This document shows, piece by piece, positions 32,910-60,638 of a stretch of 60,638 nucleotides of DNA; positions within the stretch are counted from its first letter, which is position 1; every line of letters starts with the position of its first letter. The stretch lies in NCBI GenBank assembly GCA_964389785.1, contig CAYMFW010000001.1:10806-71443 (forward strand), in the 5' to 3' direction. This DNA comes from an uncultured Planctomycetota bacterium (GTDB lineage Bacteria > Planctomycetota > CAYMFW01). Below the pieces are notes generated by a model. The model did not search any database. It was given only the letters and a program-made list of their open reading frames with translations, and was not told where the DNA came from. A program made the position numbers and the translations under genes.

Positions 32910-33015
32910 TGGCAGGCTCCTTTCCCGAAATGCGCAGCTCTCTCGTTCATCGCGGGCTCTCAACGGAACTCGTGCGAGTGAAATCCTGCGTGATGTTCTG
33001 TGTGTGAACGGACGG

Positions 33016-41875: not shown

Positions 41876-41982
41876 CGCATCCTCCTCTCGATCTTCACCG
41901 TATCCTGATACGAAACTTGCCCGGGAGCGATGCCGCCGCGTTGCTCAGGGTGAGCCGAACAACGGGTCCGTTGGTGCGCGAC

Positions 41983-42130
41983 ACCCCCTCGTGATTGCCC
42001 TTTTCTGTCGGCGTGTCGGGGTTGCGGGAAAATGATATTCAATCTATGATACTGTTTGGGTGCTATTACGACAATGTCAGTGATTGCCGAAGACTTATCA
42101 ATACTTGCCCTATTGTCTGGAAAGAAACCG
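41983..42130. repeat. Diverged inverted copy 2 of the 35402-35549 promoter/operator cassette
   Basis: Ungapped alignment, about 73% identical by my hand count over 140 nt. Both -35/-10 pairs, the TTGCC repeats and the GAGGGGGT RBS-like motif are retained. Confidence 0.8.
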
Positions 42131-42168
42131 GGGCTGGGCAGTCGGGCCGTGGTTTTTCTTCGACCGCC

Positions 42169-45100
42169 TCACCGTGCAGAGGCTGCGCCAGAAACCGGCA
42201 GAGATGCCGTTTTGACGAAGCATCCGCCGCCGCCGCCGCTTCCGCCGCCGGCCGGAGACGAGCCGAGGACGGTGAAGCTCCAGGAGACAGATGTTGAGAA
42301 GACATTTCTGGCCTGGTCTATGACGGTCATGTCGAAGGAGCAGGTAACATCCTCGCCCGCGGAGAAGTCGGTTTCCCTGTGCAGTACGATCTCTGACGTT
42401 TCGGAATCGTATTCCACGGTGATGATGTGCCTGCCCGACGAGCTTCCCGTAACTCTCACCGAGCCGGCCAGCAGCGGCGACATCGGCTCGCTCATGACAA
42501 TCTTGATGACCGCGTCGGGCATTATGCCCGTCATTCCGTCCGGCGGCACCACGGAGCTGACTGAGGGGGCCGTGGTGTCCAGCACAATCGTCCCGGACAG
42601 GGGCTCGCCTTCACCGATGACGTTTCTCGCCTGGACCCAGACGGTCTTCTCGCCGTCCGCCGTGTCCAGCGTGTGAGAGAAGCTCGAGGCGAAGGATTGC
42701 CATGCCGCAAGCTCCAGGTCGGCCTCGCTCCCCGCTACGCGGATCTCCCATGGACTTCCGGAAACGAGCACGTTCACTATCACGTCCACCTCATTGGTGT
42801 AATCGACGGACCCCGACGTCCTGTCCATGACGGTCACGGACGCGACCACGGGCGGGGTGTCCTCCGTTGAGATCGGGAAATTCCACGTGTAGTCGGAGCC
42901 GAGCGCGTTCTCGGCCTTGTCGCGAACGGACGACTCCACGGTGCACTGGACGGTCTCTCCATACGCAAAGCTCCCGGCCTGGTTGAAGACAAGCATCCCG
43001 TCCTGATACGTGGGATACGTCACATGCGAGCCGCTCACCAATCCCTCAACGAGCACCGTTGCATTGGTGAAATCCGATTCCAGCATATCGTCGTCGAATT
43101 CGACGACGATCACCGCGTCGACGCTCTGAGCGAAAGCTCCGTCCGACGGGATAACGCTGACCACCACGGGAGCTATGCTGTCGATGATTATCGTGTCGGT
43201 CGCGGAGCTGCCGGTTCCGTAATCGTTCTTGAGCTCACACCACAGGCGCTGCTCACCCTCATCCATGCCCAACATCTGTTCCGACGTCTGAGCATAGTCC
43301 CGCCAGGGAGCGGACAACAGCATGGCTTCGGTCCGCGCGAATCTCATATGGGTCGGGCCGCCCGCGGCGACGAGAGCCGCGACAACCGTGCGCTCGTTGC
43401 TGTAGGCGGTATCCCCGGAGCTCCTGTCTCTCAGGGTCATGCTCTGAATGACCGGGGGGCCGGGCTCGGAAGTTATCGAAAACTGCCAGGAGTATGCCGT
43501 CCCGAGCGTGTTGCCGGCCAGGTCACCCACCGCAGCCGCCGCGGTTGCGGTTACGGTTTCACCATACGAGAACTGGGCCGTTGCGCCGAACGCCACGGTT
43601 CTGGTCCCGGCATCGTACGAAGGATTTGTCGCGATGGCGCCGCTGATGCTGCCCGTTATGGTGCACGTGGCGGCGGTGAAATCGGCAGCCGCCATGTCCT
43701 CGATGAATTCGACACATACTCCCGCGTCGATCGGCTGGTCCGTGGCATTATTCGCGGGCAGGACGCTCAGCACGACCGGCGCGACCGTGTCCACTTCGAT
43801 GTCGTCGCTGAGCGAGGCGCTCTCCCCGCGCCCGTTTCCGAGCTGGCAGTAGAGCGTTCGTATCCCGTCGCCGGCCGACAGCGTCTGCTCGGACGTCTGG
43901 GCGTACGTCTGCCAGGGCGCGACGGCGAGGGCGGCGTCCGTCTCGGCGAATCGCATCTCCCTGGGGTCGTTTGCCGCGGTGAGCTCGACCTTTACCGCGA
44001 GCTCGTTGGAGTATTCGACGCTGTCGCTGTCCCTGTCCCTGAGAACGATCGCCTGCAGCGTCGGCGGGTTGGGCGGCGCGGTGGTGTCGAACGACCACGA
44101 GTAATCGGCGCCCATCGGGTTCCCCGCCTTGTCGCACACCGTACCGCCTATCGTTACCGTAACGGTTTCCTCTTCGACAAGAACGCTTCCGAGGGAAAGC
44201 GTCACTGTCTTCGTCCCCGCATCGTAGGAGGGCGTGCATGTGTATGCCCCGCCCAGCGTGCCGCTGACGGTGCACGTCGCCGCATCGAAGTCCGCGGATA
44301 TCATGTCGTCGTTGAAGGTCGCCGTTATCGTCACGTCGACCGCCTGGTCAACGGCCGCGTTCTGAGGAGCGGTGATCGTAACCGAGGGCGCCGTCATGTC
44401 GCACACGATCGTGTCGCTGGCCGTGTTGCTCGAGCCGGCGGCGTTCTTCAACTCGCACCAGAGCGTCTTCATGCCTTCTCCCGCGGAGAGAGCCTGCTCG
44501 CTGCTCGCCTGGTACGCCTGCCATGCCGCCGCAGCCAGACCCCCTTCCGTATCCGCGAAGCGCATCTCCGTGGCCGCCGGGCCGGAGGCGGAGATCTCGA
44601 TCGTGACGGTCAGCTCGTTGGTGTAGTCCTCCGAGCCGCTCGTGCGGTCCTTAAGGAGTATCGAGTCGAGAACCGGAGCAAGGCTCGGCTCCGTCACGGT
44701 TATCTGGACGGTATCGGTATCGGTCAGCGTGCCGTCGGACACGGTGAGCGTGGCCGTGTAGATGCCAGCAACCGTGTATTCGTGCGACGGGTTCTGTTCG
44801 TCCAGCGAATTGCCGTCGCCGAAATCCCACGAATAGGAGAGGTCATCGAGGTCGACATCGGTACCCGTTCCGGTAAATTGTACCGTCAGCGGCGCGTCAC
44901 CGCTGAGAGGGTTGGCGGCGGCGGTGGCCACCGGTGCGTCGTTCACGGGGTTCACGGTGATCGTGACCGTCGCCAGATTGGACGGCGTCTTGCTGTCGGT
45001 TGCCCTGTACGTGAACGTATCCTCACCGTGGTAGTTGAGCGTCGGGGTGTACGTAAAGGACCCGTCGTCCGCCAGATCGACGGTGCCGTGCTGCGGATCG

Positions 45101-48100
45101 TCCACCTTCACCGCTTTCAGCGTGTCGCCGGGGTCCGCGTCGCTGTCGTTCGAGAGGACGCCGGGCGCGGCGACGTTGAGGGCGTTATCCTCGTCCACCT
45201 CGTACGAGTCGTTCTGCGCCACGGGGGCGACGTTCGATATCTCGTGGGTGACGGCGATTGTACCGCCGGAGAGCGCCGCGAAGCCGGACGCGTTGGCCGT
45301 CGATACGGCCGTCGACAGCACGATGCCGGTCGCGTCGACCGTGGCGTCCGTTCCGTTCAACGTGACCGTCACGGCGTCGGCACCCGCCACCGCCGCCACG
45401 TCCGCCTCCAGCATGAAGTTAACGCCGTCGGCGCCGTTGTTCACCAGGAACGAGAACCCGGCGAAATCCACCGTGATGGTCCCCGTGCCGCCGGAGAGGT
45501 CCGATATCGTAACGTTGCTCGAGACCACCTCGACGTCGCCCCCATCCACGGCGCCGTCGTTGTTCACGTCCCTGAACACCTGCACGTTCGTGATCTCGGT
45601 ATTCGCGATGCCGTTCACGCCGCTCAGCTCGAACTCGAGTCTGGTCACGGTCACGATCTCGAAGGCCGGAGAGTCGGTGTTCCCCGACGTGGTCAGCCTG
45701 AATCGGTACAGGCCGGCATCCGTGTAGTCGCCGGCCGCGGTGAAAGCGTTCGTCACCTGGTTCAGCGTGTGGTCGGCCACGGCGAGGTTTCCGGGGGTGA
45801 CGGACCCGGCCTCGCCGCTGTTCGAGGAGCCCGTTCCTCCCGCCGCGCTCGTGGTGCCTCCGAACGAAGACGAGGCGTACTTGACGAGGATCCTGCCGCC
45901 CGCTCCTCCGTTCGTGCCGGCGCCGCCTTCGGCCTTCAGGTCACCGGCTCCGGCGAAGGTGTCGCAGTCTATGTAGATGCTTCCACCGGCACCGCCATCT
46001 ATCTCCGCCTCTCCGCTCGCGCTTACCATACCGTCGACCGTGATGGTGCCGGTGGAGGCGATGAGCCGCATCGCCCCTCCGCCGGCGCCCGTGCCGCCGC
46101 CGCTGCCGCACGTGCCGGGCGCGGTCGGCACGCCGTAGGCCGCGTCCGGGTTGTTTCCGCCCCGTCCGCCGTGCGTTCCGCCTTCGCCGACCTCGCCCGC
46201 TCCGGGGCCCGATCCGGCCGGGAAGCCGCGCCCGTCGGCGCTCAGCACCGCGTCCTGACCCACGGTGATATTCTCTGCGATCAGCGTCGCGCCGACGGCG
46301 CTGTCCGCATCAACGATCTCGCTCGTGAGGACCATCGTCCCGTTCCCCAGCACCACGTCTCCCGCCACGGTAAGCTCCTGGGAGTTGTCCTCCGTGAAAT
46401 TCGCGTCGAAGGTGATCGTGGACGTGTACGCCGCCTCCACCGTGATCGAATGCAGATCCTGCGGGACCTCCCCGACGGAAGCGTTACAGTCGTAGTCGTA
46501 CAGCGCGCTGAACGTGATCGCGTCACCCGCGACAGGTACGCGGAGGAGGCTCCAGTTGGCCGCGGTGGACCAGCTGTTGTCGCCGTCACCGTCATCGTTC
46601 GTCCAGATATTCTGAACGATCCGGTGCGTCGCGGTGACGCTCGTTCCCCTCAGCTCCGCGAAACCCACGGCGTTCGCGGCGTTCGCGGCATTAACCGGTA
46701 TCGCAAGCGACGTGCCCGCCGCGGTTACGGACGAGTCGGCCGCGTCCAGTGTGACGGTCAGGCCGTCGCCGTGCGCCACTCCGATCACGTCGGCCTGCAG
46801 GATGATGTCGGGGTACTTGCCGCCCGCGTTCTTCATGCGGTCGTCGTCCAGAACGAAGGCGCCCGGCGCGAAATCCACAGTGAGGGTTCCGGAGCCCCCC
46901 GACAGGTCGGACACGACCCAACCGCTGCTGGCGATCTCTCCGTCGGAGACGCCGTCACCGTCGTCCTGGAGGATGCGCACGTCGGAGATGTCCAGATTCG
47001 ACAGCCCGGACACCCCGGTGAGGTCGAACACGAGCCGGGTGATCTGGACGTCCTCGAACGCCCTGTCGTCCGTGTTGCCGTCCGTCTGGAGCCTGAACCT
47101 GAGAAGCGCGGTGTCGCCGTAGTCGGCCGGAACGGTGAACGCGTCGCCCACCTGCCCTGCGGTGTGGGCGGCAAGCTCCAGGCTGCCGGGCGCCACCGAG
47201 CCCTCCTCGCCGTCCGCCGCGCCTCCCGCGCCGCCGGACGCATCCGCGGAACCGGTGAACGTCGAGGTCCCGTACGACATGCATATCCGACCGCCGCCTC
47301 CCCCGTTGGCCGCGGCGCCGGCCCCGCCACCCCTGGCCTGCATGCTGCCGCTTCCCGCCAGCGTCGCGCAGGTGATGTACACGCTGCCGCCGGAGCCGGT
47401 GTCGTTGGCCGAGCTCGGGTCCGTCTCCTCGGCGTTCCAGGCGCCGTGCCCCGGCTCCGGCGACACGAACTTCCGCACTCGAACATCGTCCGCCCCGCCC
47501 GTACCCGAGTTGTGGTGATTCAGAGCCAGATACCCGCTCGTGTACGTGCTGTCGGCGAGACGGGTATCTCCCAAAGCGCCACCCGCGTACCATTTGTGGT
47601 CGGCGTTCTGGTCCCTCGTTATCAGGCAGGAGATCCAGGTGTTCGTGGAGCCGAACACGTCGGTCTGGGAGCCGGTGAACGCACCATCGCGGAGAATCCC
47701 CTCCTTTTCCCCTCCCCGCACGTCGAGGCGGGCGTGGTACCGTTCATTCGTCGCAGGCGTGGAGTCCTGGTAGTACTGGATCGCGGTGATGAGGGCCGTC
47801 GCGTAGAGGTCCGCTTCGATGGCCATCGGTCCGTCGTACTGGAACGTCGCCGTGCGGATGTTGGTCGTGGAGGAACTCAGATAGATGGCCTGCCTTCCCC
47901 CGACGGTCCCGTAGCTCGCTCCTCCCTGAACGGTGGTCCAGTTGTCGGCGTACGTGCCGGAGGCGTCGTCGAAGAAGAGGAACGTGTTCTCACCGCTGCT
48001 CGTCGTGGAAGCATCGGCCTTGCCGTAGTAGACGTGGATGTCCTGATCGGAACCCAGGTCCGCCGACACCTCGACCCAGAACACGGCGTGGTCGCTGTCC

Positions 48101-51100
48101 ACCATCTCCGCCATCCAGTAGTCAAGCTCCGCCGCTCCCCCGGCGTCCGTGAAGCGGATGTCCTCGAAGTCCGTTCGGCACTTGTCGTCGAGATACACGT
48201 CGCCGCCGGCGTCCGCGGCGGTTCCGTAGTGCACGGTGAGCGTCACCTGGTAGTTCGTTCCCGCTTCCGCCGCGCCGGTAACGGTGTGTCCCTTCCGGAA
48301 GCCGAAACCGGAAAGCCACGTCAGGCTCGACGGCGCCCCGTCGGCCCGGATCGTTCCGTCCACGGTGAGCGTGTCGGACGCGTTGAGCTTTACCGCGCCG
48401 CCGCCCGCGGAATCGTCCCCGCCGCTTCCGAGCGTCACCGGCGCGACCACCGCACCGTAGAGCATGGTGTTCCCGCCTCCGCCCCTTCCTCCGTGCGCTC
48501 CGCCCTGGCCCGTTCCTCCCGCGCCCGGTCCCTGGCCCGCGGCGAAGCCGGTGCCGTCGCAGTGGACGACCGCCGCGGCGCCCACCGTGATGTCCTCCGC
48601 GTTTATCGTCACGCCCTCCTGCCCCGCCGTGTCGCCCGTGAGCACCAGCGTCCCGCCGTTCAGGGTAACGTCGCGCTTCACCGTGAGGGTCTGCGACGGG
48701 CCCGCCGCGAAGTTCGCCTGGAACGTGATGGTGCCGGTGTAGTCCGAAGTGACCGTGAGGGAGGTCAGGTCCTGCGCCACGGTGCCCGCGGCGGCCGTGC
48801 AGTCCACCGACGACGTGACGTCGAACACCACCTCCTCACCGGCAACCGGCGCGTGGCCCGCGCTCCAGTTGCCGTCGACGCTCCAGTTGGTGTCTCCGAC
48901 GCTCTGCCATGTGTTCGTCACGGAGGCCATCTGGTGGGTCACTCCGGTGGTGGAGCCCGCGAGCTCGGCGAATCCGATTCCGGCCGCCGCGTTGGCGGTG
49001 GTCGCCGTCGTGCCGATCACCGCCCCGGCAGTTATCACCTTCGTATCCGTCGCCGCCAGATCGATCGTGAGCTCGTCACCCGCTTCGACGGAGGCGACGT
49101 CCGCCCGGAGTATGAAGTCCTGCCTCTGAGCGGTGCCGTCCACTACGAAGTCACCGGCCGCGAAATCGATTGTGACGGCGCCGGTATCTCCGGCGATGGA
49201 TACGTCCACCGCGCTCGAGACCATCTCCACGTCGCCCCCGTCCACGCTGCCGTCGAAGTTCGCATCGGCGTACACCTTGACGTTGGTGATGTCGACCGCG
49301 TCAACGTAATAGACGTCCGAGAGATCGAATATCAGCCGCGTGACCTCCATGCTCTCGAACGCCCCGCCGGAGTTCGTGTCGGTCTGCAGGCGGAACCGGT
49401 ACAGCATAAGCGGGTTGGCGCCGCCGAACGCGTTGGGGGCCTGGGTCTGCACGTGGTCGGCAAGGTCAAGGCTCCCCGGCGCGACGGAGCCCGCCTCACC
49501 GTTTCCGAGCCCCCCGGTGCCGCCCGTGGCGTCGGTTGTGCCAGTGAAGGTCGATGTGGTGCAGTCGATCGCGATGCGCCCGCCGCCGCCCGCGTTGCCG
49601 TTTGCCGCGGTGGTCCCTCCCTGAGACTCGATCCTGCCGCTGCCCGCCAGGGAGCTGCATACGAGAAGAAGGCTTCCGCCGGCGCCCGTGTCGAGATCGT
49701 CACCGGTCCCGGACCCGGAGGAGAACGTCTCCTCCGGTCCCGTCGAGACAAAGGTAAGGGGCGAGCTCTGGTTGCTGTACTCGGTCTTTACCCAGCCGGC
49801 GCTTCGGCCCGCGGACGCGACCCGGAGCTCGTCCAGCTGCCCGTCGAACCAGCTATAGAAGCTTCCTCCGCTGGTAGCCAGCTTGTGAGCGAACCGCAGA
49901 GAATCGCCGTTATTGTATATGGTGCCCGATACCGCCTGCGTTCCGGTGTCTATCAACTCTCCGTCTATGTAGAACTTGACGTACTGGCCGTCGTAGACGC
50001 CCGCGAGATGGTACCACGTGCCGGCCGATATGCTGCCCGCGTCGGCGTTCGCCCTGGTGCCGGCCGTGTACCAGCCATTGTTGGAGGTCCGGACGACGAA
50101 ATGCGCCGCGCCGTCCGGGCTGATGTTGAGGCGGTACGCGCCCTCCTTGATCATCGGGAAGCACAGATACTGCAGGAGCACATCCGGCCTTACCCAGGCC
50201 GAAACCGTCAGCTGCGCCATGCTCTCCAGCGTACCGCTGTCCGGAACGTCGGCGTAATCGTCCGCTCCGTCGAAGTCCCACGCCCAGCCGACCTTGCCGG
50301 CCACCCGGTCGTCGGAGCTCATGTCGCCGGAGACGGCGCCATTGTTATTGTTGGCGGTGGTGTCGCCGGCCGTGGGCGGAGGCGATTCCTCGAAATGCCA
50401 TACCCCGCCGAAATCGACCGCCCACACGCCGGCGGCGTCCCGCTGGTCCGACGAGCCGGCGTTCCCGTAATACATGTAGATCTCGGTGTCGGCCGACGCG
50501 GACAGGCCGGGAACCAGGACCCACGCCGCAAGCTCCCCCGTGCCGCTCACGTATTCCCGGATCTCGTGGCTCAGCTTCGTGGTGCCGTCCGAGCTCGTGA
50601 AGAGAATATCGTCGCCGTCCGCCTGGGCGTCGGCGGCCAGGCCCGCGTCGGAAGCCAGGTGTACCAGAGCCGGGAAGTTGGTGAGATCGTCGTCCACCTT
50701 CGCGCTGTCGATGACTATCTTCTTTCGACAGGTCCAGTCCGAATCGTACCACCAGTCGACCCCGCTGCCGCCGTTCGATCGCACCATTCCGTCCACCGTT
50801 ATCGCCCCCGTCGCGTTGAGCTTGATCGCGCCGCCGCCCGCGGTGTCCGCGCCTCCGCTGCCCAGGGTGACCGGAACGGTTCCGCTCCCGTAGGTCGCGT
50901 CGGCGTTGTTGGCGCCCTCGCCTCCGTGCGCGCCGCCTTCACCGACCGCGCCCGCGCCGGGTCCCTTCGTCGCGGAGAAGCCCCTGCCGTCGGCGTGGAG
51001 TATCGCATTCGATCCGACGACAAAGTTCGCGGCGTTGATCGTCGCGCCTTCTCCCGTGGTATCGTCTATCTCGCGGCTGCTCAGTATCAGCGTCCCGTCG

Positions 51101-54100: not shown

Positions 54101-57100
54101 GTGTCGCCGCCGTTGGCCTGCACCAGGCCGGCGCCCGCGAAGTTCCCGCAGGTTATCCATACGCTGCCGCCGGTTCCTCCTATATAATAGTAATGGTGAT
54201 CGCCGTTGGATCGGACGATCCCGTCCACCGTCACCGTTCCGGCGCCGACGTCGATCTTGACGGCGCCCCCGCCCCACTGGTATCCGCCCTCGGTGTTGTA
54301 GCTGCCGGCGCGTCCGCCGCTTCCCAGCGTGACGGGCGCATCCGGGTCGCCGTAGGGCACCATGCTCACGTAGTTATGCGTGCCGCCGTTTCCGTACATC
54401 CCGTACCCGCCGTGGGACGGCCCGGTGCTGTTGTCGGTATGCGAGCCCGGGCCGCTTTCCGCCATGAAGCCGTCGCTGTCGGCGTAGAGCAGGCCTCCCG
54501 ACTCGACCATGAGATTCGACGCGGTGATACGACATCCCACGATCACACGGCGCGTTCCGGAACCGACGTCCGCGAGATCAACCGGATTGGCGCCCGTCGA
54601 TGCGTCCGTCGCGTTGGTGTGTATGGTGTAGACGTTGTCAGAAAGCTTGTAGACGTAGTAGTCCGTGTCGGCAACGAGAGGATCGGGCAGGTCGGTACCG
54701 GTGAAGTAGACCGGGTCCCCGGTTTCCAGGATGCCGCAGACTGAAAGTGCTATCGATTCCGTGTCCGTATCGACATCGGTATCTCCGAACCCGTCGTAGC
54801 CGCTGTGGCAGAAGAGCGTTCCGCCGGACTGCACCGTCACGTCTCCGAACGTGTATCCGCCGGCCGCGAGGCTCACCACGTCGCCGTTCTTCACGATGAG
54901 GTCTATATCGGACGGCAGGTACACGCTTCCCGGCCGGCCGTCGTAGGAGTCGCAGTTGATGGAGTCTCCGCCCGCCACGCTGCACTTTCCGGCGAAGGTG
55001 AACGTGGTGCATTCCGCGGCGATTCGCCCGCCGCCTCCGGCACCGCACGTGCCGTCTCCGCCGTTCGCCTGCAGCGTTCCGGTGCCGGTGACCGTATCGG
55101 CTATGAGATATATGCTTCCGCCGGACGTGCCGGCGTCGCTCGACCAGGACCCGATATCGGACAACCCGTCGGAGATGATGGTGCCGTCCACCGTTATCGT
55201 TCCCGCCCCAACGTTGATCTTTACGGTACCGCCGCCTCCGTAGGCCGGGTTGTCGCCTCCGCTTCCGGGCGTCTCGGGCGACTTCTTGCTGCCGTAGCCG
55301 ACCTTGTTGTTCGCACCGCCGCGGCCGCCGTGCGCGCCGCCTCCGTAGTACGTTCCCCTGGCGCCCGGGCCCGAGTGGTACGGATAGCCACGGTAGCGCG
55401 CGTCCACCATGGCGCCCGCATCCACCGTGAAGCTCGCGGCGTTTATCGTGATGGGGTCGGCGGGCACCGGCTTGCCCGCGTAGGAGATGGTGCCGAGAGC
55501 CAGCGTGCCGCCCTGTATCGCGACGGTACCTGTAACCGTGAGCTCCTGCAGGGAGCCCTCCGCGAAGTAGTCCGCGAACGCCACCGTGCTCGTGTAGCCG
55601 GCCTGCATCGTAAGCGAAGCCAAGTTCTGGGCGACCGATCCTGCGGGGGCGTTACAATCATAGTCGTACGCCGCGCTGAAGACCACCGCGTCGCCCGCGA
55701 TGGGCACGGCGTCCAGGTCCCAGTTGGAGGGCGTCGACCAGTTCCCATCCCCGGCGCTGTCGTTGTTCGTCCAGATGAAGGTTCCCGGCACGGAGTGCTG
55801 CACGCCGGTGGTGGCCCCCGAAAGCTCCGCGAAACCGACGGCGCCCACCGCGTTGGCGGTATTGACGGTCTCGGCCAGCGACTTCCCGGCCGCTACGATC
55901 TTCGCGTCGGCCGCGTTCAAGTCGAGCGTCAACCGGTCGCCCGCCGCGATGGAGCTCACGTCCATCACGAGAAGGAAGTCGTCCTGCGCGGCGGTGTCGT
56001 CGAGCAGGAGCGCGTCCGGGTCGAACTCGAACGTTATCGTGCCGTCCGTCGCGGTGATATCGACTACGGGACTTCCGCTGACCGCCACCAGCACGTCACC
56101 CCCGTTCACGGTGCCGCTTCCGTCCTTGTCTCTGTACAGCTTGATGTCCGTTATCTCGCCAGCGGATATTCCGGTAACGGAGGAGAGGTCGAACTCCAGC
56201 CCGGTGATCTCCATGTTCTCGAAGGCCTTGTCGTCCGTGTTGCCGTCGGTGCCCAGATTGAATCGGAAGAGAACGGCGTCGTCGTAGTCGCCGGCGCCCG
56301 CGAACGCGTCCGTGACCTGCGCAGCCGTGTGGTCGGTCACTCTCAGATTGCAGGGTGCCACCGAGCCGGCCTCGCCGCCGGCCGCGCCTCCCGCGCCGCC
56401 GGGGGCCGACGCGGTGCCGGTGAACGTCGAGGTTCCATAGGACATGCACACCCGCCCGCCGCCGCCACCGTTGGCCGCCGAGGCCCCGCTGCCGCCCGCG
56501 GCACGCACCGTCCCGCTGCCCGCGAGAGCGTCACAGGTCAGATAGATGCTTCCTCCGGCGCCGGAATCGTTATCGGCCGCCGGCTCCGTCTCCTCTGCCA
56601 CCCACGCTCCGTGGGCCGGCTCGGCCGCCACGTACTTGCGGATGTATATCAGCTCCCAGTCGAAATCCAACTGGAAGGTGTCGAATTCGAAGGATGCCGG
56701 GACCAGCGCGGTGGTATCGACCGTGGCGATGTCCTTTCTCGTCGACCCATCGATATCGAGCTTCAGATTGTCCGGGGTCCAATAAGTGACTATGGTGTAC
56801 TGCTGTCCGTCCGTGTTCACCGTGCCGGCTTCGGTCGACGAGTCGGTCGTCGCGGCCGCCACCACCTTGTACACCCCCTGGGCGGAGTAACCCGAGCCTT
56901 GAAAGCAGAACCTGTAGTAGTTGTCGGCGTCCTGTCTCAGATACAGGTCTTGCTGGTTATCGCTGGGGTAGTCCTTCATCTTGGTCATGACGATCGTGGC
57001 CGAGCCCGAAGACGGAAGAGCGACGCTTCTGTAAGCGGATTCCCTGTCGTTGTCGCCCGAGATGACCTCCAGCAGTTCCTCGCTCTCGTTCCAGTAGTGG

Positions 57101-60100
57101 GAATTGGCGGGTGACTTGGTATCCACCGTGGTCCAGGTATAGTCCCCGGACGTATCCGTTTCGAAATCGTCGAAGAACGAGAATGTGGCTGACCCGTCAC
57201 TCGTCGTCGCGGCGTCGCCCTTGCCGTAGCAAACGTGGATGTCCCGGTCTGACCCCAGGTCGGCCGTCACCTCTATCCAGAAGACGGCATAGTCGCTGTC
57301 TACCATCTCCTCCATCCAGTAGTCCAGCTCCGCTACTCCCCCGGCGTCCGCGAAACGGACGTCCCCGAAATCCGTCCGGCACTTCCCGTTCAGGTATACG
57401 TCCTCCCCCGCGTCCGCTCCGGCCCCGCGGTGCACGATGAGCTTCACCTGGTAGCCCGTTCCGGCCCCGTCCGCTCCCGTTACCGTGTGTCTCTTCCGAT
57501 ACAGCCAGCCAGAAAACCACCCCGGGCTCGCGGGCGCCCCGTCCGCGCGGATCGTTCCGTCCACGGTAAGCGTCCCGGATGCGTTGAGCTTTATCGCTCC
57601 GCCCCCCGCGGAGTCCTCCCCGCCGCTTCCCAGCGTTACCGGGGCCGTCGCGGCGCCGTAGAGCGCGGTGTTGGGACCTCCGCCCCGTCCGCCGTGCGCT
57701 CCGCCCTTGTCGGTCCCTCCCGCGCCCGGTCCCTGGCCCGCGGCGAACCCGGTGCCGTCGCAGTGAACGACGGCCGCCGCGCCCACCGTGATGTCTCCGG
57801 CGTTAATCGTCACGCCTTCCCCGGTCACCGCGTCTATCGCGCGGCCGGTAAGTATCAGCGTTCCTCCGTTCAGGATCACGTCGCGCTTCACCGCAAGGGT
57901 CTGCGAGGGGCCCTCCGCGAAGTTCATCTCGAACGTGATGGTGCCGGTGTAGTCGGAGGTGACCGTGAGGGAGGCCATCTCCTGCGCAACGGCGCCCGCG
58001 GCCGCGGTGCAGTCCTCCGTCGAGGTGTCGTCGAACACGACCGCCTCTCCGAGAAGCGGCGCGTGGCCCAGGCTCCAGTTGTCGGCGTTGCTCCAGTCGC
58101 CGTCGCAGGGAAAAATACCGGTGCTCAGCCAGGCGTTCGTCACGGGCGCGATCTCGTGAGTAACACCTGTCGATGAACCGGCAAGCTCGGCGAATCCGAC
58201 CGCGTTGGCTGCGTTGTCGGTGACGGCCGTCGTGCCTGTGATCTCCCCCGCGGCTATGATGTTCGTGTCTGCCGCTGCCAGATCGATCGCCAGCTTGTCG
58301 CCCGCTTCCACGGAGGCGACATCCGCCTGAAGCATGAAGTCCCGTCTCTGCACGGTGCCGTCCACCACAAAGGCGCCGCCCGCGAAATCCATTGTGATCG
58401 TGCCGGCCGCTCCCGCAATGACTACGTCCACCGTACTCGCCGTCATCTCCACATCGCCCCCGTCGACGCTGCCGTCGAAGTTCGCGTCGGCGTATACCTT
58501 GACGCTGGTGATGTCACCCGCATCCACGTAGCAGATGTCCGACAGATCGAATATCAGTCGCGTCACCTCAATGCTCTCGAACGCCCCGCCGGAGTTGGTG
58601 TCGGTTTGCAGGCGGAATCGGTACAGCATGAGCGGGTCGGCGCCTCCGAACGCATTCGGGGCCTGCGTCTGCGCATGGTCGGCCAGATCCAGATTGCCCG
58701 GCGTAACCGAACCGGCTTCGCCGGTGCCCAGACCCCCGGGGCCGCCGGAGACGTCTGTGATGCCGACAAAGGTACAGGTGGCATAGCTGGCGGCGATCCT
58801 TCCTCCCGCACCGCCCTGGCCGTTCGACATCGCCGTGCCGCCCACCGCTTCGATCAACCCGCCGCCGGCAAGCGTTCCGCAGATAAAGTAGATGCTGCCG
58901 CCGGCGCCGGTATCGTAGTCCGTGCCGCCGAATTCCGCTTCCTCGGCAGACCATCTGTCGGGGCTTGGTTCGGCCGCCAGGCATTTACGAAACGCAATCC
59001 AGTCGTACATGCAGACCGCGGGCTTATACAGACCGGCCCGCCAGGTCCAACTTCGGCCGGCAAATCCGGGCTGGGTCAATTGCTGGGAGCCAAGGAGACT
59101 GCCGGCGTCCGACCAGAATACGGCCTCGAACGTGGTCGTAGCGGTCTTTCGATTCTCGTTGATGTACCAGATGTTGCTGTCTTCGAGGACGATGGTGTCC
59201 AGGTCCTTATCCCCGCTATCCCCGCCGGGGGTGCCGTCGTTATATTGGATATGGAAACCATGGGGGTCCTTGTTATCATCGCAAATTCGGAAACATTGTT
59301 CCCCCGAGCTTGTATCATCAAGACAATTCTGAAACCACCAATTGATGCCGGTGGTTTTGTAGCGCGTGCGCGCGGCGAATTTTTCGCCGTCGGCGAAAGT
59401 CTGGATGGAGTACATCGAAGCCCACGAGCCGTCACTCCAGATGCTCAACGTGCCCCCGGAGACTGAAAAATCCATGGAGGTGCTGGCGTAAGTGAATTTG
59501 TCGTTGTTTTGAGCGGAGAAATCGTCGAAAAGGATGAACGTGTCGTCACCGTTGCTGGTCGTCGCTGCGCCGGCCTTGCCGTAATAGATGTATATGGCCT
59601 GATCGCTTCCCAGATCGTCGGCCACTTCCACCCAGAAGACGGCATCGTTGCCCTTTACGGACTCGAGCCAGTAGTCCAGCAGTGTCACCCCGTCCGCGGC
59701 GGTAAAACGGACATCGCCGAAATCCGCGAGGCATTTCGCGCGAAGATAGACGCCTTCACCGCTGTCGACGCCCGAGGAACGGTGCACGTCGAGCTTCACC
59801 TGGTAGTTCGCGCCGGCACCCGCCGATCCGGCAATGACATGCCTCTTGCGCCACGACCAGCCCGACATCCAGTTCCCCATCTGTCCGTTGCAGCTCACGG
59901 CGCCGTCGATCGTAATAGTGCCGACCGCGACGTTGATCTTCAGTGCGCCGCCGCCGGCGGTGTCAGCGCCGCCGCTTCCAAGGGTCACCGGAACCGTGGC
60001 GCTTCCATAGAGCGGGTCCGCGTTACCCCCGCCCTGGCCGCCGTGCGCCCCTGCCTCACCGGCACCTCCTCCGCCGGGCCCCCTGGTCGCCGAGAACCCC

Positions 60101-60573
60101 CTGCCGTTCGAATGGACCTTCGCGTTTTCTCCCAGGGTGAAGTGCGCGGCGTTGATCGTCACCCCTTCACCGGTCGTGTCGCCCGTCTCGAGGCCGCTCA
60201 GAACGAGCGTTCCTCCGTTCAGCGTAACGCTGCCGGAGACCGTCAGCGTCTGTGCCGGGCCTTCCGCGAAGTTCGCGGCGAACGTGATGGTTCCGGAGTA
60301 GCCCGGCTGCGCTGTTACGGATGCGAGGTTCTGCGGCACGTCACCGGCCGCAGCGTTGCAGTCGTAGCTGTAGTCGGGCTTGAATACGACCGCGTCGCCC
60401 GCCTCGGGCAGCCGTCCCAGGTGCCAGTTCGTCGTGGTCGACCAGCTGCCGTCACCGTTCCCGCTGTTGTTGGTCCAGACGATCTCGGCCCCGTAACACT
60501 GGCAGACCACCCCCCAGAACACCGCCGCGACGGCTATAACGAGCAGCCGGCGATTGCTGTTCTCCATACTCAT
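42169..60573 (-). CDS. Giant (6134 aa) secreted repeat surface protein/adhesin: seven Gly-rich modules, four DUF2341-type inserts (one with LamG), Big_9/cadherin-like, PKD, four Ig/Big_5 pairs, C-terminal GGGGGCF motif
   Basis: Single uninterrupted ORF with a signal peptide. Repeated WxxxxNW and GGAHGG..YG..PVTLGSGG..GGGAI units, DVRFT..LDYW..FWVEV..YYGK (DUF2341), WYHLAGVYDG..FDGQLDELR (LamG), YSWDFGDG (PKD) and DYSWSF (Big_5). Confidence 0.9.
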   Translation of the reverse strand: MSMENSNRRLLVIAVAAVFWGVVCQCYGAEIVWTNNSGNGDGSWSTTTNWHLGRLPEAGDAVVFKPDYSYDCNAAAGDVPQNLASVTAQPGYSGTITFAANFAEGPAQTLTVSGSVTLNGGTLVLSGLETGDTTGEGVTINAAHFTLGENAKVHSNGRGFSATRGPGGGGAGEAGAHGGQGGGNADPLYGSATVPVTLGSGGADTAGGGALKINVAVGTITIDGAVSCNGQMGNWMSGWSWRKRHVIAGSAGAGANYQVKLDVHRSSGVDSGEGVYLRAKCLADFGDVRFTAADGVTLLDYWLESVKGNDAVFWVEVADDLGSDQAIYIYYGKAGAATTSNGDDTFILFDDFSAQNNDKFTYASTSMDFSVSGGTLSIWSDGSWASMYSIQTFADGEKFAARTRYKTTGINWWFQNCLDDTSSGEQCFRICDDNKDPHGFHIQYNDGTPGGDSGDKDLDTIVLEDSNIWYINENRKTATTTFEAVFWSDAGSLLGSQQLTQPGFAGRSWTWRAGLYKPAVCMYDWIAFRKCLAAEPSPDRWSAEEAEFGGTDYDTGAGGSIYFICGTLAGGGLIEAVGGTAMSNGQGGAGGRIAASYATCTFVGITDVSGGPGGLGTGEAGSVTPGNLDLADHAQTQAPNAFGGADPLMLYRFRLQTDTNSGGAFESIEVTRLIFDLSDICYVDAGDITSVKVYADANFDGSVDGGDVEMTASTVDVVIAGAAGTITMDFAGGAFVVDGTVQRRDFMLQADVASVEAGDKLAIDLAAADTNIIAAGEITGTTAVTDNAANAVGFAELAGSSTGVTHEIAPVTNAWLSTGIFPCDGDWSNADNWSLGHAPLLGEAVVFDDTSTEDCTAAAGAVAQEMASLTVTSDYTGTITFEMNFAEGPSQTLAVKRDVILNGGTLILTGRAIDAVTGEGVTINAGDITVGAAAVVHCDGTGFAAGQGPGAGGTDKGGAHGGRGGGPNTALYGAATAPVTLGSGGEDSAGGGAIKLNASGTLTVDGTIRADGAPASPGWFSGWLYRKRHTVTGADGAGTGYQVKLIVHRGAGADAGEDVYLNGKCRTDFGDVRFADAGGVAELDYWMEEMVDSDYAVFWIEVTADLGSDRDIHVCYGKGDAATTSDGSATFSFFDDFETDTSGDYTWTTVDTKSPANSHYWNESEELLEVISGDNDRESAYRSVALPSSGSATIVMTKMKDYPSDNQQDLYLRQDADNYYRFCFQGSGYSAQGVYKVVAAATTDSSTEAGTVNTDGQQYTIVTYWTPDNLKLDIDGSTRKDIATVDTTALVPASFEFDTFQLDFDWELIYIRKYVAAEPAHGAWVAEETEPAADNDSGAGGSIYLTCDALAGSGTVRAAGGSGASAANGGGGGRVCMSYGTSTFTGTASAPGGAGGAAGGEAGSVAPCNLRVTDHTAAQVTDAFAGAGDYDDAVLFRFNLGTDGNTDDKAFENMEITGLEFDLSSVTGISAGEITDIKLYRDKDGSGTVNGGDVLVAVSGSPVVDITATDGTITFEFDPDALLLDDTAAQDDFLLVMDVSSIAAGDRLTLDLNAADAKIVAAGKSLAETVNTANAVGAVGFAELSGATTGVQHSVPGTFIWTNNDSAGDGNWSTPSNWDLDAVPIAGDAVVFSAAYDYDCNAPAGSVAQNLASLTMQAGYTSTVAFADYFAEGSLQELTVTGTVAIQGGTLALGTISYAGKPVPADPITINAASFTVDAGAMVDARYRGYPYHSGPGARGTYYGGGAHGGRGGANNKVGYGSKKSPETPGSGGDNPAYGGGGTVKINVGAGTITVDGTIISDGLSDIGSWSSDAGTSGGSIYLIADTVTGTGTLQANGGDGTCGAGGGGRIAAECTTFTFAGKCSVAGGDSINCDSYDGRPGSVYLPSDIDLIVKNGDVVSLAAGGYTFGDVTVQSGGTLFCHSGYDGFGDTDVDTDTESIALSVCGILETGDPVYFTGTDLPDPLVADTDYYVYKLSDNVYTIHTNATDASTGANPVDLADVGSGTRRVIVGCRITASNLMVESGGLLYADSDGFMAESGPGSHTDNSTGPSHGGYGMYGNGGTHNYVSMVPYGDPDAPVTLGSGGRAGSYNTEGGYQWGGGAVKIDVGAGTVTVDGIVRSNGDHHYYYIGGTGGSVWITCGNFAGAGLVQANGGDTDGPGYGQPSGGRVAVAWSVGTTYTGDFDVRGGRYGDVWEGQPGTLSLPDGADLTVRADRKVGLAPGSHTLGDVTVQSEGVLFFHGESASGTGCELTATSVTVESDGEISAYASGYATGAGDGASTSGASHGGRGAGAVAAYGDVTAPVTLGSGGKAGSNGSYYGGGAIRINVPGGAVTIDGTVSANGYGTAAGGAGGSVYVVCGALSGSGTIEANGGTAGGGGRIALDYITCTFTGTTGAAGNEVGSVLPGSLSLDEHTAAQAGNAFAGAGDHDDIQVYRFKLQSGTNTDDGAFEEIEISQLVFDLTEVDGIIDTQFADVHLYQDDGDGVVDAEIANIGWTVSDLSGGTGTLTMDFGAGVLVLDDDRMTSQNTTYPDFILQTDVTGVVLGDRMKVRLNAVDSRVTATGTTLGEAVTTANDGIGFAALTGTVTAVTHDSDAGTNVWSSAGDTNWNVDGNWSLGWAPKTGEAVVFDATSSVACNAAADTVAQNLASITVASTYGGTITFDANFGYNGAGGTQALAVKRSVTINGGTLVVTGDAGADTGVTFTCAGTGSTPFFTVGSGGILHSNALGYGAGVGTGGGAAGEGGSHAGRGGGVVADKTYGSATAPVTLGSGGQQGAGGGAVRISVPTGTVTVSGTLSVNGETNGNSGAGGSIYIECDTLAGDGLLEAKGGGGGGGASGGAGGRIALSYSSCSFTGSTDISGGAGTGSDGEAGSVVPGSLRIAEHTLTQLSDAFAAEGGYNDTILYLFKLRTDGSTDDEAFESMDVTKLVFDLGAVSGVAAGEITDLKLYRDKDGSGTVTGGDLLVIPKGGFPTVSIDGDTGNITYEFDPGDLLLDDTAGSDDFFLMADVASVATGDRLAIGLNSLDSRITGTGGSLGKIASASNSSGFAELSGTVEGVTHVVETGGPLVWTNGSGNGDWSDPGNWNIGRVPQAGDDVTFDSTSTGNCTAGAGAVPQNLASLTIASGYGGTITFGSNFAEGPSQTLAVTGGVTLNDGTLILSSREIDDTTGEGATINAANFVVGSNAILHADGRGFSATKGPGAGAVGEGGAHGGEGANNADATYGSGTVPVTLGSGGADTAGGGAIKLNATGAITVDGMVRSNGGSGVDWWYDSDWTCRKKIVIDSAKVDDDLTNFPALVHLASDAGLAADAQADGDDILFTSSDGTTKLSHEIREYVSGTGELAAWVLVPGLSASADTEIYMYYGNAGSSDQRDAAGVWAVDFGGVWHFEESPPPTAGDTTANNNNGAVSGDMSSDDRVAGKVGWAWDFDGADDYADVPDSGTLESMAQLTVSAWVRPDVLLQYLCFPMIKEGAYRLNISPDGAAHFVVRTSNNGWYTAGTRANADAGSISAGTWYHLAGVYDGQYVKFYIDGELIDTGTQAVSGTIYNNGDSLRFAHKLATSGGSFYSWFDGQLDELRVASAGRSAGWVKTEYSNQSSPLTFVSTGPEETFSSGSGTGDDLDTGAGGSLLLVCSSLAGSGRIESQGGTTAANGNAGGGGRIAIDCTTSTFTGTTDATGGTGGLGNGEAGSVAPGSLDLADHVQTQAPNAFGGANPLMLYRFRLQTDTNSGGAFESMEVTRLIFDLSDVYYVDAVDITNVKVYADANFDGSVDGGDVEMVSSAVDVSIAGDTGAVTIDFAAGDFVVDGTAQRQDFILRADVASVEAGDELTIDLAATDTKVITAGAVIGTTATTANAAAGIGFAELAGSTTGVTHQMASVTNTWQSVGDTNWSVDGNWSAGHAPVAGEEVVFDVTSSVDCTAAAGTVAQDLTSLTVTSDYTGTITFQANFAAGPSQTLTVKRDVTLNGGTLVLTGDTAGQEGVTINAEDITVGAAAVVHCDGTGFAAGQGPGAGGTGQGGAHGGRGGGGNTMLYGAVVAPVTLGSGGDDSAGGGAVKLNASDTLTVDGTIRADGAPSSLTWLSGFGFRKGHTVTGAAEAGTNYQVTLTVHYGTAADAGGDVYLDDKCRTDFEDIRFTDAGGAAELDYWMAEMVDSDHAVFWVEVSADLGSDQDIHVYYGKADASTTSSGENTFLFFDDASGTYADNWTTVQGGASYGTVGGRQAIYLSSSTTNIRTATFQYDGPMAIEADLYATALITAIQYYQDSTPATNERYHARLDVRGGEKEGILRDGAFTGSQTDVFGSTNTWISCLITRDQNADHKWYAGGALGDTRLADSTYTSGYLALNHHNSGTGGADDVRVRKFVSPEPGHGAWNAEETDPSSANDTGSGGSVYITCATLAGSGSMQARGGGAGAAANGGGGGRICMSYGTSTFTGSADASGGAGGAADGEEGSVAPGSLELAAHTAGQVGDAFTVPADYGDTALLRFRLQTDGNTDDRAFEDVQITRLVFDLTGVSGLSNLDISDVRILQDDGDGVSDGEIASSGWVVSDLSGGSGTLTVDFAPGAFVLDDDRMKNAGGKYPDIILQADVIGVAHGDGLTVTLDAADSSVTAAGTSLAIPVNAANAANAVGFAELRGTSVTATHRIVQNIWTNDDGDGDNSWSTAANWSLLRVPVAGDAITFSALYDYDCNASVGEVPQDLHSITVEAAYTSTITFDANFTEDNSQELTVAGDVVLGNGTMVLTSEIVDADSAVGATLIAENITVGQDAVLSADGRGFPAGSGPGAGEVGEGGTHGGRGGNNPDAAYGVPTAPGTCGSGGGTGAGGGAMRLIASTGTITVDGMVSASGEAEIDGGAGGSIYIDCDTFAGAGDLKAEGGAGTNGGAGGRILVKYASSSFGGTTSAAGGTGSSNSGEAGSVTPGNLAVADHTLNQVTNAFTAAGDYTDAGLYRFRLTTSGNTDSPAFEIVTVTRLEFELSGVNGIANTEITNVQVFRDVNNDGAVDGGDVEVVSSNVTISDLSGGTGTITVDFAGFSFLVNNGADGVNFMLEADVAAVAGADAVTVTLNGTDATVDATGIVLSTAVSTANASGFAALSGGTIAVTHEISNVAPVAQNDSYEVDEDNALNVAAPGVLSNDSDADPGDTLKAVKVDDPQHGTVDLADDGSFTYTPTLNYHGEDTFTYRATDSKTPSNLATVTITVNPVNDAPVATAAANPLSGDAPLTVQFTGTGTDVDLDDLSYSWDFGDGNSLDEQNPSHEYTVAGIYTATLTVSDGTLTDTDTVQITVTEPSLAPVLDSILLKDRTSGSEDYTNELTVTIEISASGPAATEMRFADTEGGLAAAAWQAYQASSEQALSAGEGMKTLWCELKNAAGSSNTASDTIVCDMTAPSVTITAPQNAAVDQAVDVTITATFNDDMISADFDAATCTVSGTLGGAYTCTPSYDAGTKTVTLSLGSVLVEEETVTVTIGGTVCDKAGNPMGADYSWSFDTTAPPNPPTLQAIVLRDRDSDSVEYSNELAVKVELTAANDPREMRFAETDAALAVAPWQTYAQTSEQTLSAGDGIRTLYCQLGNGRGESASLSDDIEVDTVAPVVLSVLPANNATDQPIDAGVCVEFIEDMAAADFTAATCTITGSISGAIATNPSYDAGTRTVAFGATAQFSYGETVTATAAAAVGDLAGNTLGTAYSWQFSITSEPGPPVIQSMTLRDRSSGDTAYSNERTVVAALVAAGGPTHMRFARTEAMLLSAPWRDYAQTSEQMLGMDEGEQRLWCELKNDYGTGSSATDTIIIDSIAPVVVSVIPSDGAFAQSVDAVIVVEFDDDMLESDFTNATVLVEGLVSGSHVTYPTYQDGMLVFNQAGSFAYGETVQCTVESSVRDKAENALGSDYTWNFPISTEDTPPVVASVTVMDRTSGSVDYTNEVDVIVNVLVSGSPWEIRVAGSEADLELAAWQSFASSFSHTLDTADGEKTVWVQARNVIGEGEPLSGTIVLDTTAPSVSSVVPPDGMTGIMPDAVIKIVMSEPMSPLLAGSVRVTGSSSGRHIITVEYDSETSEIVLHRETDFSAGEDVTCSFDMTVIDQARNVFSTSVSWSFTVLGSSPAGGGSGGGGGCFVKTASLPVSGAASAR

Positions 60574-60638
60574 AACCCAATCAAGTCCTTTCCGAATAAC
60601 ATTTTAGGGCTGATTCCTCTCGGGTAGGCATATCCTCA

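Follow-up and report, generated by a model that had tools for sequence, protein, structure and literature searches.

The window analysed here, a stretch of 60,638 nucleotides (nt) from contig CAYMFW010000001.1 of an uncultured Planctomycetota bacterium, contains on its minus strand (42169..60573) a single gene coding for a giant protein of 6134 residues, which is probably a tethered, multivalent glycan-binding fibre of adhesin-like type. This reading follows from an adhesin-type helix fold combined with lectin-type heads that differ from one module to the next and with the presence of glycosidase genes in the immediate neighbourhood. The protein would be a very acidic, Sec-exported fibre kept on the cell, binding glycans or glycan-coated particles at many sites. 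Its N-terminal 5100 residues would point outward as seven modules, each composed of a rigid β-helix and then of a domain carrying a Ca-loop-like motif (hereafter D3), with four of the helices displaying from one loop position a DUF2341 domain and a module-specific domain. Closer to the C-terminus, ten immunoglobulin (Ig)-like domains (one cadherin-like, one PKD and four pairs of Big_13-like and Big_5 domains) would form a stalk, ended by a Gly run and a Cys-Phe-Val tail which may serve as a sorting or anchoring tag common to about two dozen acidic proteins. Ligands would be bound by the variable heads and perhaps also by D3, allowing multivalent and multispecific attachment beside secreted glycosidases, and export across the outer membrane would probably proceed via one of the type II-like systems.

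Regarding the gene itself, it is real, as the initial annotation had assumed: the 18.4 kb between 42169 and 60573 form one open reading frame (ORF) of 6134 codons plus a stop codon. The encoded protein (622 kDa, pI 4.06) is as strongly acidic as first described, with 759 Asp and Glu residues versus 261 Lys and Arg, and Gly, Ala and Thr account for 37% of its sequence. The G+C content at third codon positions (GC3) is 0.838, versus 0.846 for the neighbouring GH38 gene and 0.614 for a 2910-residue antisense ORF (43024-51756, plus strand; GC1 0.856), and the minus strand is therefore the coding strand. Considered as a gene, this antisense ORF was rejected on its GC3 and is a shadow frame of the GC-rich giant gene. 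Residues 1-28 (60490..60573, minus strand) have by eye the basic n-region, the hydrophobic core and the ...CYG/AE border of a Sec-type signal peptide, which suggests that the protein is Sec-exported. Slightly beyond the window edge, ~90 nt ahead of the start codon (ATG), a sigma-70 consensus matching at 12 of 12 positions (TTGACA-16-TATAAT) faces the gene. About 60% of the protein is not covered by Pfam.

The layout of the N-terminal region was established by aligning all seven modules and by profile mapping, and the module borders agree within ~50 nt with those proposed initially. In every module, a helix N part and a helix C part come before D3, and the whole protein has nine helix units and seven copies of D3. 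The WxxxxNW motif occurs seven times (residues 44, 827, 1612, 2611, 3083, 3897 and 4668), together with seven GE(A/E)GSVxP motifs and nine [AST]H[GA]G ... P-x-T-x-GSGG units, which are the Gly-rich GGAHGG/PVTLGSGG units already noticed. On the minus strand, module 1 (58150..60489, residues 29-808) has between its two helix parts an insert composed of DUF2341 (59497-59724) and a variable domain (58930-59496), and ends with D3 (58156-58701). Helix, insert and D3 are likewise found in module 2 (55792..58149, residues 809-1594; DUF2341 57127-57372, variable domain 56584-57126, D3 55804-56355), module 5 (48928..51372, residues 3068-3882; DUF2341 50401-50619, Laminin_G_3 49792-50271, D3 48934-49479) and module 6 (46621..48927, residues 3883-4651; DUF2341 47932-48171, variable domain 47419-47931, D3 46621-47190). 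Module 3 (52786..55791, residues 1595-2596) contains three tandem helix units (53350-55788), no DUF2341, and D3 (52789-53352); module 4 (51373..52785, residues 2597-3067; D3 51376-51936) and module 7 (45244..46620, residues 4652-5110; D3 45262-45795) consist of an uninterrupted helix followed by D3.

In modules 1, 2, 5 and 6, the helix is broken at one common alignment position by ~320-355 residues. DUF2341 always comes first in these inserts and is followed by a second domain of ~170-230 residues that differs in every module. DUF2341 (PF10102, gathering cut-off 23.4 bits) was recognized with 128 and 103 bits when the protein was scanned as halves (two stretches each) and with 72.8, 67.8, 42.8 and 70.0 bits in the single inserts of modules 1, 2, 5 and 6, respectively. 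Laminin_G_3 (PF13385, concanavalin A-like; cut-off 27.6 bits) is present in module 5 only, with 73.9-79.5 bits. Between modules 1, 2 and 6, the DUF2341 parts are 55-69% identical, and the domains behind them have only their last ~25 residues in common. The four DUF2341 domains, Laminin_G_3, the three helix units of module 3 and the C-terminal tail were overlooked by the initial annotation. Directly downstream of the giant gene and on the same strand, a GH123-like gene (39152-41875) and a GH38 gene (36636-39071) are found. As no terminator-like site is present in the 290-nt gap that separates the giant gene from the GH123-like gene, both genes may, from the sequence, be co-transcribed with it.

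Structure prediction, suggested at the outset for every module, was carried out on module 7 and on D3. Module 7 was folded by AlphaFold on the alignment of all modules, with a mean predicted local distance difference test score (pLDDT) of 68 and ~90 over the helix N part, and was modelled as a right-handed parallel β-helix, in line with the β-helix-like domain to which the WxxxxNW motif had been ascribed. Structure comparison gave 51 chains at Z ≥ 8, the top ones being β-helix adhesins, lyases and tailspikes. The best scores were those of Candida Awp3b (Z 13.1), HMW1 (12.7), EtpA (12.5), HxuA (11.6) and FHA (10.6), with autotransporter passengers at Z ~10; obtained with a predicted model, such values for repeat folds indicate shared architecture and not kinship. 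A Foldseek search of the PDB with the whole module returned nothing at E ≤ 0.001, and the helix unit had 0 matches at E ≤ 10 among PDB sequences. In protein databases, 198 shorter relatives of the helix unit were retrieved at E ≤ 1e-10, the best with 42% identity, and those bearing a name are called ‘beta strand repeat-containing protein’, ‘LamG domain-containing protein’ or hypothetical. A Gly/His signature ([AST]HGGxGG...YG...P..LGSGG) is kept in all nine helix units of the giant protein and in 86 of the 120 listed relatives, versus none of the 120 aconitase sequences used as controls and two of the 150 D3 hits. Among proteins of 3373-10735 residues, only five match the module, one of them being a 3948-residue version of the same protein. 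One match of the helix unit (38% identity) is a 4975-residue ‘hypothetical protein’ that a 45.8-Mb record assigns to the clam Mactra antiquata, which could be bacterial DNA in the clam assembly or a transferred gene.

Several of these data can also be read as signs of catalysis. The protein would then be a surface or secreted multi-catalytic polysaccharide enzyme, with the helix units acting as lyases or hydrolases, the Gly/His loop forming the active or metal site, and the lectin-like inserts and D3 serving as carbohydrate-binding modules. Indeed, the fold matches of module 7 include pectate lyases (Z 10.1 and 8.2), a polysaccharide lyase family 6 (PL6) alginate lyase (9.1), dextranases (8.4), a fucoidan lyase (8.3) and phage depolymerases; the conservation of the Gly/His signature suggests a functional site, and the GH123-like and GH38 genes directly follow. 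Moreover, according to precomputed annotation, 7 of the 120 listed helix relatives contain a G8 domain (PF10162), a domain that precedes catalytic helices in some eukaryotic hyaluronidases. Nevertheless, the best fold matches are adhesins, and it would be unusual for one chain to hold seven to nine catalytic units that are nearly identical. In addition, no glycoside hydrolase, lyase or Beta_helix family was reported by Pfam and NCBIfam at E ≤ 0.01 for the whole protein, nor was any catalytic or Beta_helix family at E ≤ 1 for the parts scanned separately, i.e., the N parts of three helices and the central portion of module 3. Such an enzyme thus appears unlikely, and a glycan-binding fibre is preferred.

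D3, the second building block of the modules, had been noticed as an uncharacterised ~180-residue LxxH(T/A/V)xxQxxxAF domain and a possible unnamed family, and both proposals are supported. Seven copies of this ~185-residue LxxHxxxQxxxAF domain are present, 42-48% identical to copy 1 (79% between copies 1 and 5), with a conserved H...Q ... D ... G ... TH pattern and a dockerin-like loop. The seven copies gave no Pfam family at E ≤ 10, only sub-threshold noise, and no NCBIfam match, and searches of D3 profiles against PDB sequences retrieved noise and single-chain variable fragment (scFv) linkers but no relative. The D3 model, built on 28 sequences (pLDDT 83.8, predicted template modelling score (pTM) 0.81), is a predicted β-sandwich. 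Among solved structures, it comes closest to two sialidases from Bacteroidota, in their N-terminal domains (Z 9.0 over 132 residues at 3.0 Å, and Z 8.2), and next, at Z 6-7.4, to diphtheria-toxin-type receptor domains, TTHA1873, CBM3, cohesins and Gram-positive adhesin or pilin domains, with domains of the Bap/Esp biofilm proteins also at Z 6-7. Independently, in a language-model feature search of the Atlas, 8 of the 30 clusters nearest to D3 came from a set for which BNR_assoc_N is annotated on 13% of the members of the listed cluster. As far as the model indicates, the likeness of D3 to BNR_assoc_N is at the fold level only.

A profile hidden Markov model of this domain, as had been suggested, was built and searched against 1.84 billion proteins, with 459 representatives retrieved at E ≤ 0.001, 179 at 1e-10 and 23 at 1e-30. 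In the best 150 of these 459 proteins, 216 domain hits distributed in 128 proteins span at least 140 of the 187 profile positions, and other giant proteins carry D3 in tandem arrays or at regular spacing (for instance, 11 copies in 7926 residues). When 25 of the best 150 proteins were scanned, 16 were found without any Pfam family at E ≤ 1e-5, and the remaining ones contained Laminin_G_3, DUF2341, Peptidase_C25, WD40, FG-GAP, Beta_helix and others. D3 stands directly behind a helix of the present type in only 2 of the 150 listed proteins, and only one of the 150 has a C-terminal tail comparable to the one described below; from these sequences, D3 and the tail appear to travel separately. In the phylum, D3 matches at E ≤ 1e-5 were obtained in 13 of 400 further genomes, and only one of these genomes has a match that is strong and full-length.

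The proposal that many DxDxDG-like Ca-binding loops stiffen the protein fared less well. Strict DxDxDG is absent (0 occurrences), and Dx[DN]x[DN]G occurs three times versus a shuffle mean of 1.4. The dockerin-like pattern Dx[DN]x[DNS]Gx[IVL] occurs five times, always inside D3 and once each in five of the seven copies. Dockerin_1 (PF00404, cut-off 22.9 bits), a family of paired Ca-binding loop-helix repeats, matches three of the seven D3 copies, with a best E of 0.0041, copy 1 remaining below the cut-off with 14.2 bits; the matching stretch, where displayed, is single and short. Instead of many loops, there is thus about one dockerin-like loop per D3 in five of seven copies, which, along with one cadherin-like domain, could at most hint at a Ca-stiffened fibre.

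The succession of Big_9, PKD and four DRxS plus Big_5 pairs, described initially behind the modules, was found in full. On the minus strand, an Ig-like domain recognized as Cadherin_4, Big_9 or Cadherin_5 (44950..45261, Pfam E 1e-20 to 5e-17) is followed by a PKD domain (44695..44943; PKD_4, E 1.6e-18) and by four repeats of ~203 residues (42262..44688), each composed of a ‘DRxS..YTNE’ unit and Big_5, the first pair occupying 44401-44688 and 44083-44400. Pfam cut-offs were passed by Big_5 (173.6 bits, four stretches), PKD_4 (66.9 bits), Cadherin_4 (74.2 bits) and Big_9 (71.5 bits); the NCBIfam tandem-95 repeat stayed below its cut-off on the cadherin-like domain. The four repeats are 34-47% identical and carry four DRxS..Y(T/S)NE motifs. 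Regarding the DRxS unit, it has no Pfam or NCBIfam match at E ≤ 1 and is nearest, by language-model features, to Big_13, Big_7 and Big_3_2 clusters, which gives a lead that these units may be divergent, Big_13-like Ig domains.

The stalk is ended by a Gly-run linker and a CFI-box-like tail (42172..42261, minus strand; core GGCFVKTA 42205-42228), so that the protein terminates with ...GGGSGGGGG-CFVKTA-SLPVSGAASAR, the Cys being the 17th residue from the end. The only NCBIfam model reported for this tail is NF041763 (CFI-box putative sorting motif). GGCF[ILVM] occurs 33 times in the 25,116 frames of at least 100 residues of the genome, and in 28 of these 33 cases the Cys is located 6-36 residues from the stop. 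The tail is carried by 25 frames of at least 300 residues, the giant included (455-7979 residues; 11 cut at contig ends), all of which are acidic (D+E 11.5-26.9%, K+R 1.6-6.2%), and three of these proteins exceed the NF041763 cut-off. This set includes the 7979-residue frame on contig C51; the longest frame of the genome (10,614 residues, contig C35) does not belong to it. Behind the Cys, 6-30 mostly polar residues are found across the set (16 in the giant protein) and no hydrophobic helix. In the phylum, 12 of 201 sampled genomes have an NF041763 match over the cut-off and six have at least five matches, and an over-cut-off protein from another family of the phylum ends with ...SGCFISALR-stop. 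The related model NF041770 (CFI_box_CTERM) gave nothing on the tail at E ≤ 1, and nowhere in the genome did a match exceed its cut-off; a 31.2-bit match on contig C61, located 1.5 kb upstream of a gene for an Rce1-like protease, was rejected as a tagged substrate, being an internal membrane segment of a multi-pass protein with no Cys-Phe motif. The genome has three Rce1-like genes, none of them linked to the giant gene. In the literature searched, no paper was found under the terms ‘CFI-box’ and ‘CFIATAA’. Contact-dependent toxin delivery was considered and rejected since the C-terminus contains no toxin or other enzymatic domain.

The eight secretin and two Omp85 hits of the genome, likewise unlinked to the giant gene, imply that the cell has two membranes. 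The tail, which marks ~25 acidic giant proteins, might be read as a bacterial CaaX-type box without a membrane helix. It is tempting, though this can only be a tentative and rather doubtful proposal, to see in the protein three uncatalogued elements (D3 as a rare portable β-sandwich with a conserved His/Gln/Asp/His pattern, the Gly/His-loop helix and the helix-less Cys tail) and, in the last of them, the basis of a novel surface-sorting route. If the tail were lipidated or cleaved at its Cys and the protein passed to one of the eight secretin systems, this would be a new sorting route for two-membrane bacteria, with the giant protein among its largest cargoes.

As one of 25 large acidic tail-bearing proteins that could jointly form a coat, the giant protein might also be a structural matrix or envelope protein, i.e., a biofilm, sheath or S-layer-like scaffold spacing or cementing cells without specific ligand recognition. 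Its extreme acidity and size would fit such a role, as would the perfect consensus promoter, which suggests high expression, and the resemblance of D3 to cohesins, pilins and Bap/Esp domains. However, the diversified lectin-type heads of four modules argue for ligand recognition. Moreover, the helix unit and D3 are found within this genome in the giant gene alone, and no S-layer homology (SLH) or S-layer family matched the whole protein in the Pfam and NCBIfam scans. A purely structural function is therefore rather unlikely.

Coming back to the glycan-binding fibre, the helix fold, the lectin-type domains, the Ig-like stalk, the tail and the glycosidase neighbours all fit the extended adhesin or filament for particle or polysaccharide attachment that had been proposed initially, without proving it; from them we infer surface location, anchoring by the tail, binding of glycans and outer-membrane export. 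A number of observations nonetheless weigh against this assignment. Polysaccharide-active helices resemble module 7 at Z 8-10, which keeps catalysis as an unlikely alternative, and the conserved Gly/His loop was modelled at a pLDDT of 30-46 only. The domains following DUF2341 in modules 1, 2 and 6 have no family match at E ≤ 1. The Z values of 9.0 and 8.2 obtained for D3 barely exceed the Z 7-8 typical of unmatched models and, by sequence, D3 is not related to BNR_assoc_N (PF14873), with no Pfam match at E ≤ 10 and an hhalign probability of 0.24% against one example. The tail scores 13.5-14.4 bits with NF041763, below the cut-off of 15.9, and this short model is noisy, 10-11 of 14 control genomes matching it at E ≤ 1 to 10; the argument for the tail therefore rests on its position bias and not on its score. 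No sorting enzyme was identified. Finally, a sequencing-run search found the stretch contained in no RNA run.

For a gene built of repeats, assembly is a critical issue, and the seven-module order might be a chimera of shorter paralogues, or the gene decaying and unexpressed. The source genome is a 5.8-Mb metagenome bin of 570 contigs (90% complete) with 5.96% contamination, and a public gene call of the same protein has only 3948 residues, on a 38-kb contig, with 100% identity over the region queried (residues 2596-3068). Self-comparison of the gene revealed 24 repeat pairs, the best with 79.6% identity over 1601 nt. No exact repeat is longer than 32 nt, and the two copies of this longest one are at 48514 and 57716. 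In the Logan contigs of a salt-marsh metagenome, run X1, which is the probable source, 41900-60638 is tiled by four long pieces with no difference, and contig ends are confined to the two 32-nt repeat sites. As the middle segment has a depth of ~9 versus 8-10 for the flanking segments, two repeat copies and equal depth on the three segments leave a single possible linear order. In run X2, a second salt-marsh sample, a 397-nt contig (depth 2.9) fuses 48514 to 57716 and omits 9201 nt in frame; interior pieces of the omitted part are also contained in this run, and the joining contig would be either a k-mer artefact or a shorter five-module allele. Runs X3 and X4, with shares of only 0.17 and 0.16 of the stretch in short contigs, are uninformative for the module order. 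No indication that a repeat had collapsed was seen. With repeats at most 80% identical and an 18.4-kb stop-free frame of gene-like GC3, an artefact or a decaying gene is highly unlikely.

Beyond the GH38 gene, an AraC regulator, a lactate permease and a 1751-residue protein with a PQQ/BamB-like propeller and TPR repeats (27708-32963, minus strand) are encoded and, farther downstream, GH29, prepilin-type N-methyl proteins and HEAT-repeat proteins. The divergent genes upstream encode a HEAT-repeat protein, a GGDEF-containing response regulator and two histidine kinases with GAF. The source genome is the only member of its class among 199,900 species-representative genomes.

Giant β-helix/Ig adhesins are already a known kind of protein. 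What is novel here is the unnamed D3 family and an uncatalogued helix family with a conserved Gly/His loop, as well as swapped lectin-type heads shown from one helix loop and the membership in a 25-protein Cys-tail set. The domains do not all map to a described adhesin architecture. Many uncultured glycan degraders hold particles by giant surface proteins, most of whose sequence lacks annotation. In the present case, the Pfam-free part splits into two definable families with working profiles, D3 with its 459 representatives and the Gly/His-loop β-helix with its 198 relatives, and the Gly/His loop could be a new metal- or ligand-binding site. The presentation of exchanged lectin-type heads by a single loop of a rigid helix is an unusual design, and the sorting question becomes testable through the membership of the giant protein in a set of 25 proteins, found across the genome, that share a short Cys tail.

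With respect to known systems, the giant protein is close to the two-partner secretion (TPS) adhesins (HMW1, EtpA, FHA/FhaB, HxuA) and to the autotransporters (Hbp, IcsA, Ag43), with which it shares the right-handed β-helix (Z 10-12.7), a large size, Sec dependence and presumed adhesion. It differs by its nine helix units alternating with other domains and by its lectin-type inserts. Membership in two-partner secretion calls for an N-terminal TPS domain and a cognate TpsB (ShlB/FhaC) gene. No TPS-domain or autotransporter-barrel family was reported for the whole protein at E ≤ 0.01 (Pfam and NCBIfam), no TpsB gene is located near the giant gene, and the only ShlB-type match of the genome is weak (24.9 bits, contig C37). 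The Z of 12.7 with the TPS region of HMW1 is thus a likeness at the helix level only. Type I-secreted giants such as LapA, SiiE and the Marinomonas ice-binding adhesin are acidic proteins of more than 5000 residues with an Ig-like stalk, ligand modules and Ca elements, features which are all similar in the giant protein. These adhesins are defined by repeats-in-toxin (RTX) nonapeptide repeats, a C-terminal type I secretion signal and no N-terminal signal peptide. In contrast, the giant protein has a signal-peptide-like N-terminus (by eye) and another kind of C-terminal tag, and Pfam gave no RTX/HemolysinCabind match at E ≤ 0.01.

Proteins of more than 4000 residues with FhaB-like and DUF2341 domains have been proposed to act in adhesion or host interaction in Patescibacteria (PMC11809585); helix-type exoprotein regions and DUF2341 are common to these proteins and to the present one, which belongs to another phylum and has another helix family, and the passages of that study on DUF2341 do not include D3, the Ig-like stalk or the CFI-like tail. 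Regarding the tail, MYXO-CTERM proteins offer the best-studied parallel, for which abstracts describe an invariant Cys that is required, a tag cleaved by a CPBP/Rce1-type myxosortase, a predicted lipidation, type II secretion to the surface and a tripartite signal composed of a motif, a transmembrane helix and an Arg cluster (bioRxiv 10.1101/2023.06.07.544157; PMC11980579). As far as these abstracts go, a C-terminal invariant Cys motif on dozens of proteins per genome, two membranes, Rce1-like genes and secretins are shared, whereas in the giant protein polar residues follow the Cys in place of the transmembrane helix and the Arg cluster. With the NF041763 CFI-box, the tail has in common a Gly run and then Cys-Phe-(Ile/Val/Leu)-x-(Thr/Ser)-Ala close to the very end of the protein, its own score remaining below the cut-off. 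D3 resembles the N-terminal domain of Bacteroidota sialidases (BNR_assoc_N) as a β-sandwich of similar size and has its own conserved pattern and loop. Finally, by its proposed general plan, the giant protein is reminiscent of classic wall-anchored adhesins, which likewise combine a distal ligand-binding region, an Ig-like stalk and a C-terminal sorting tag.

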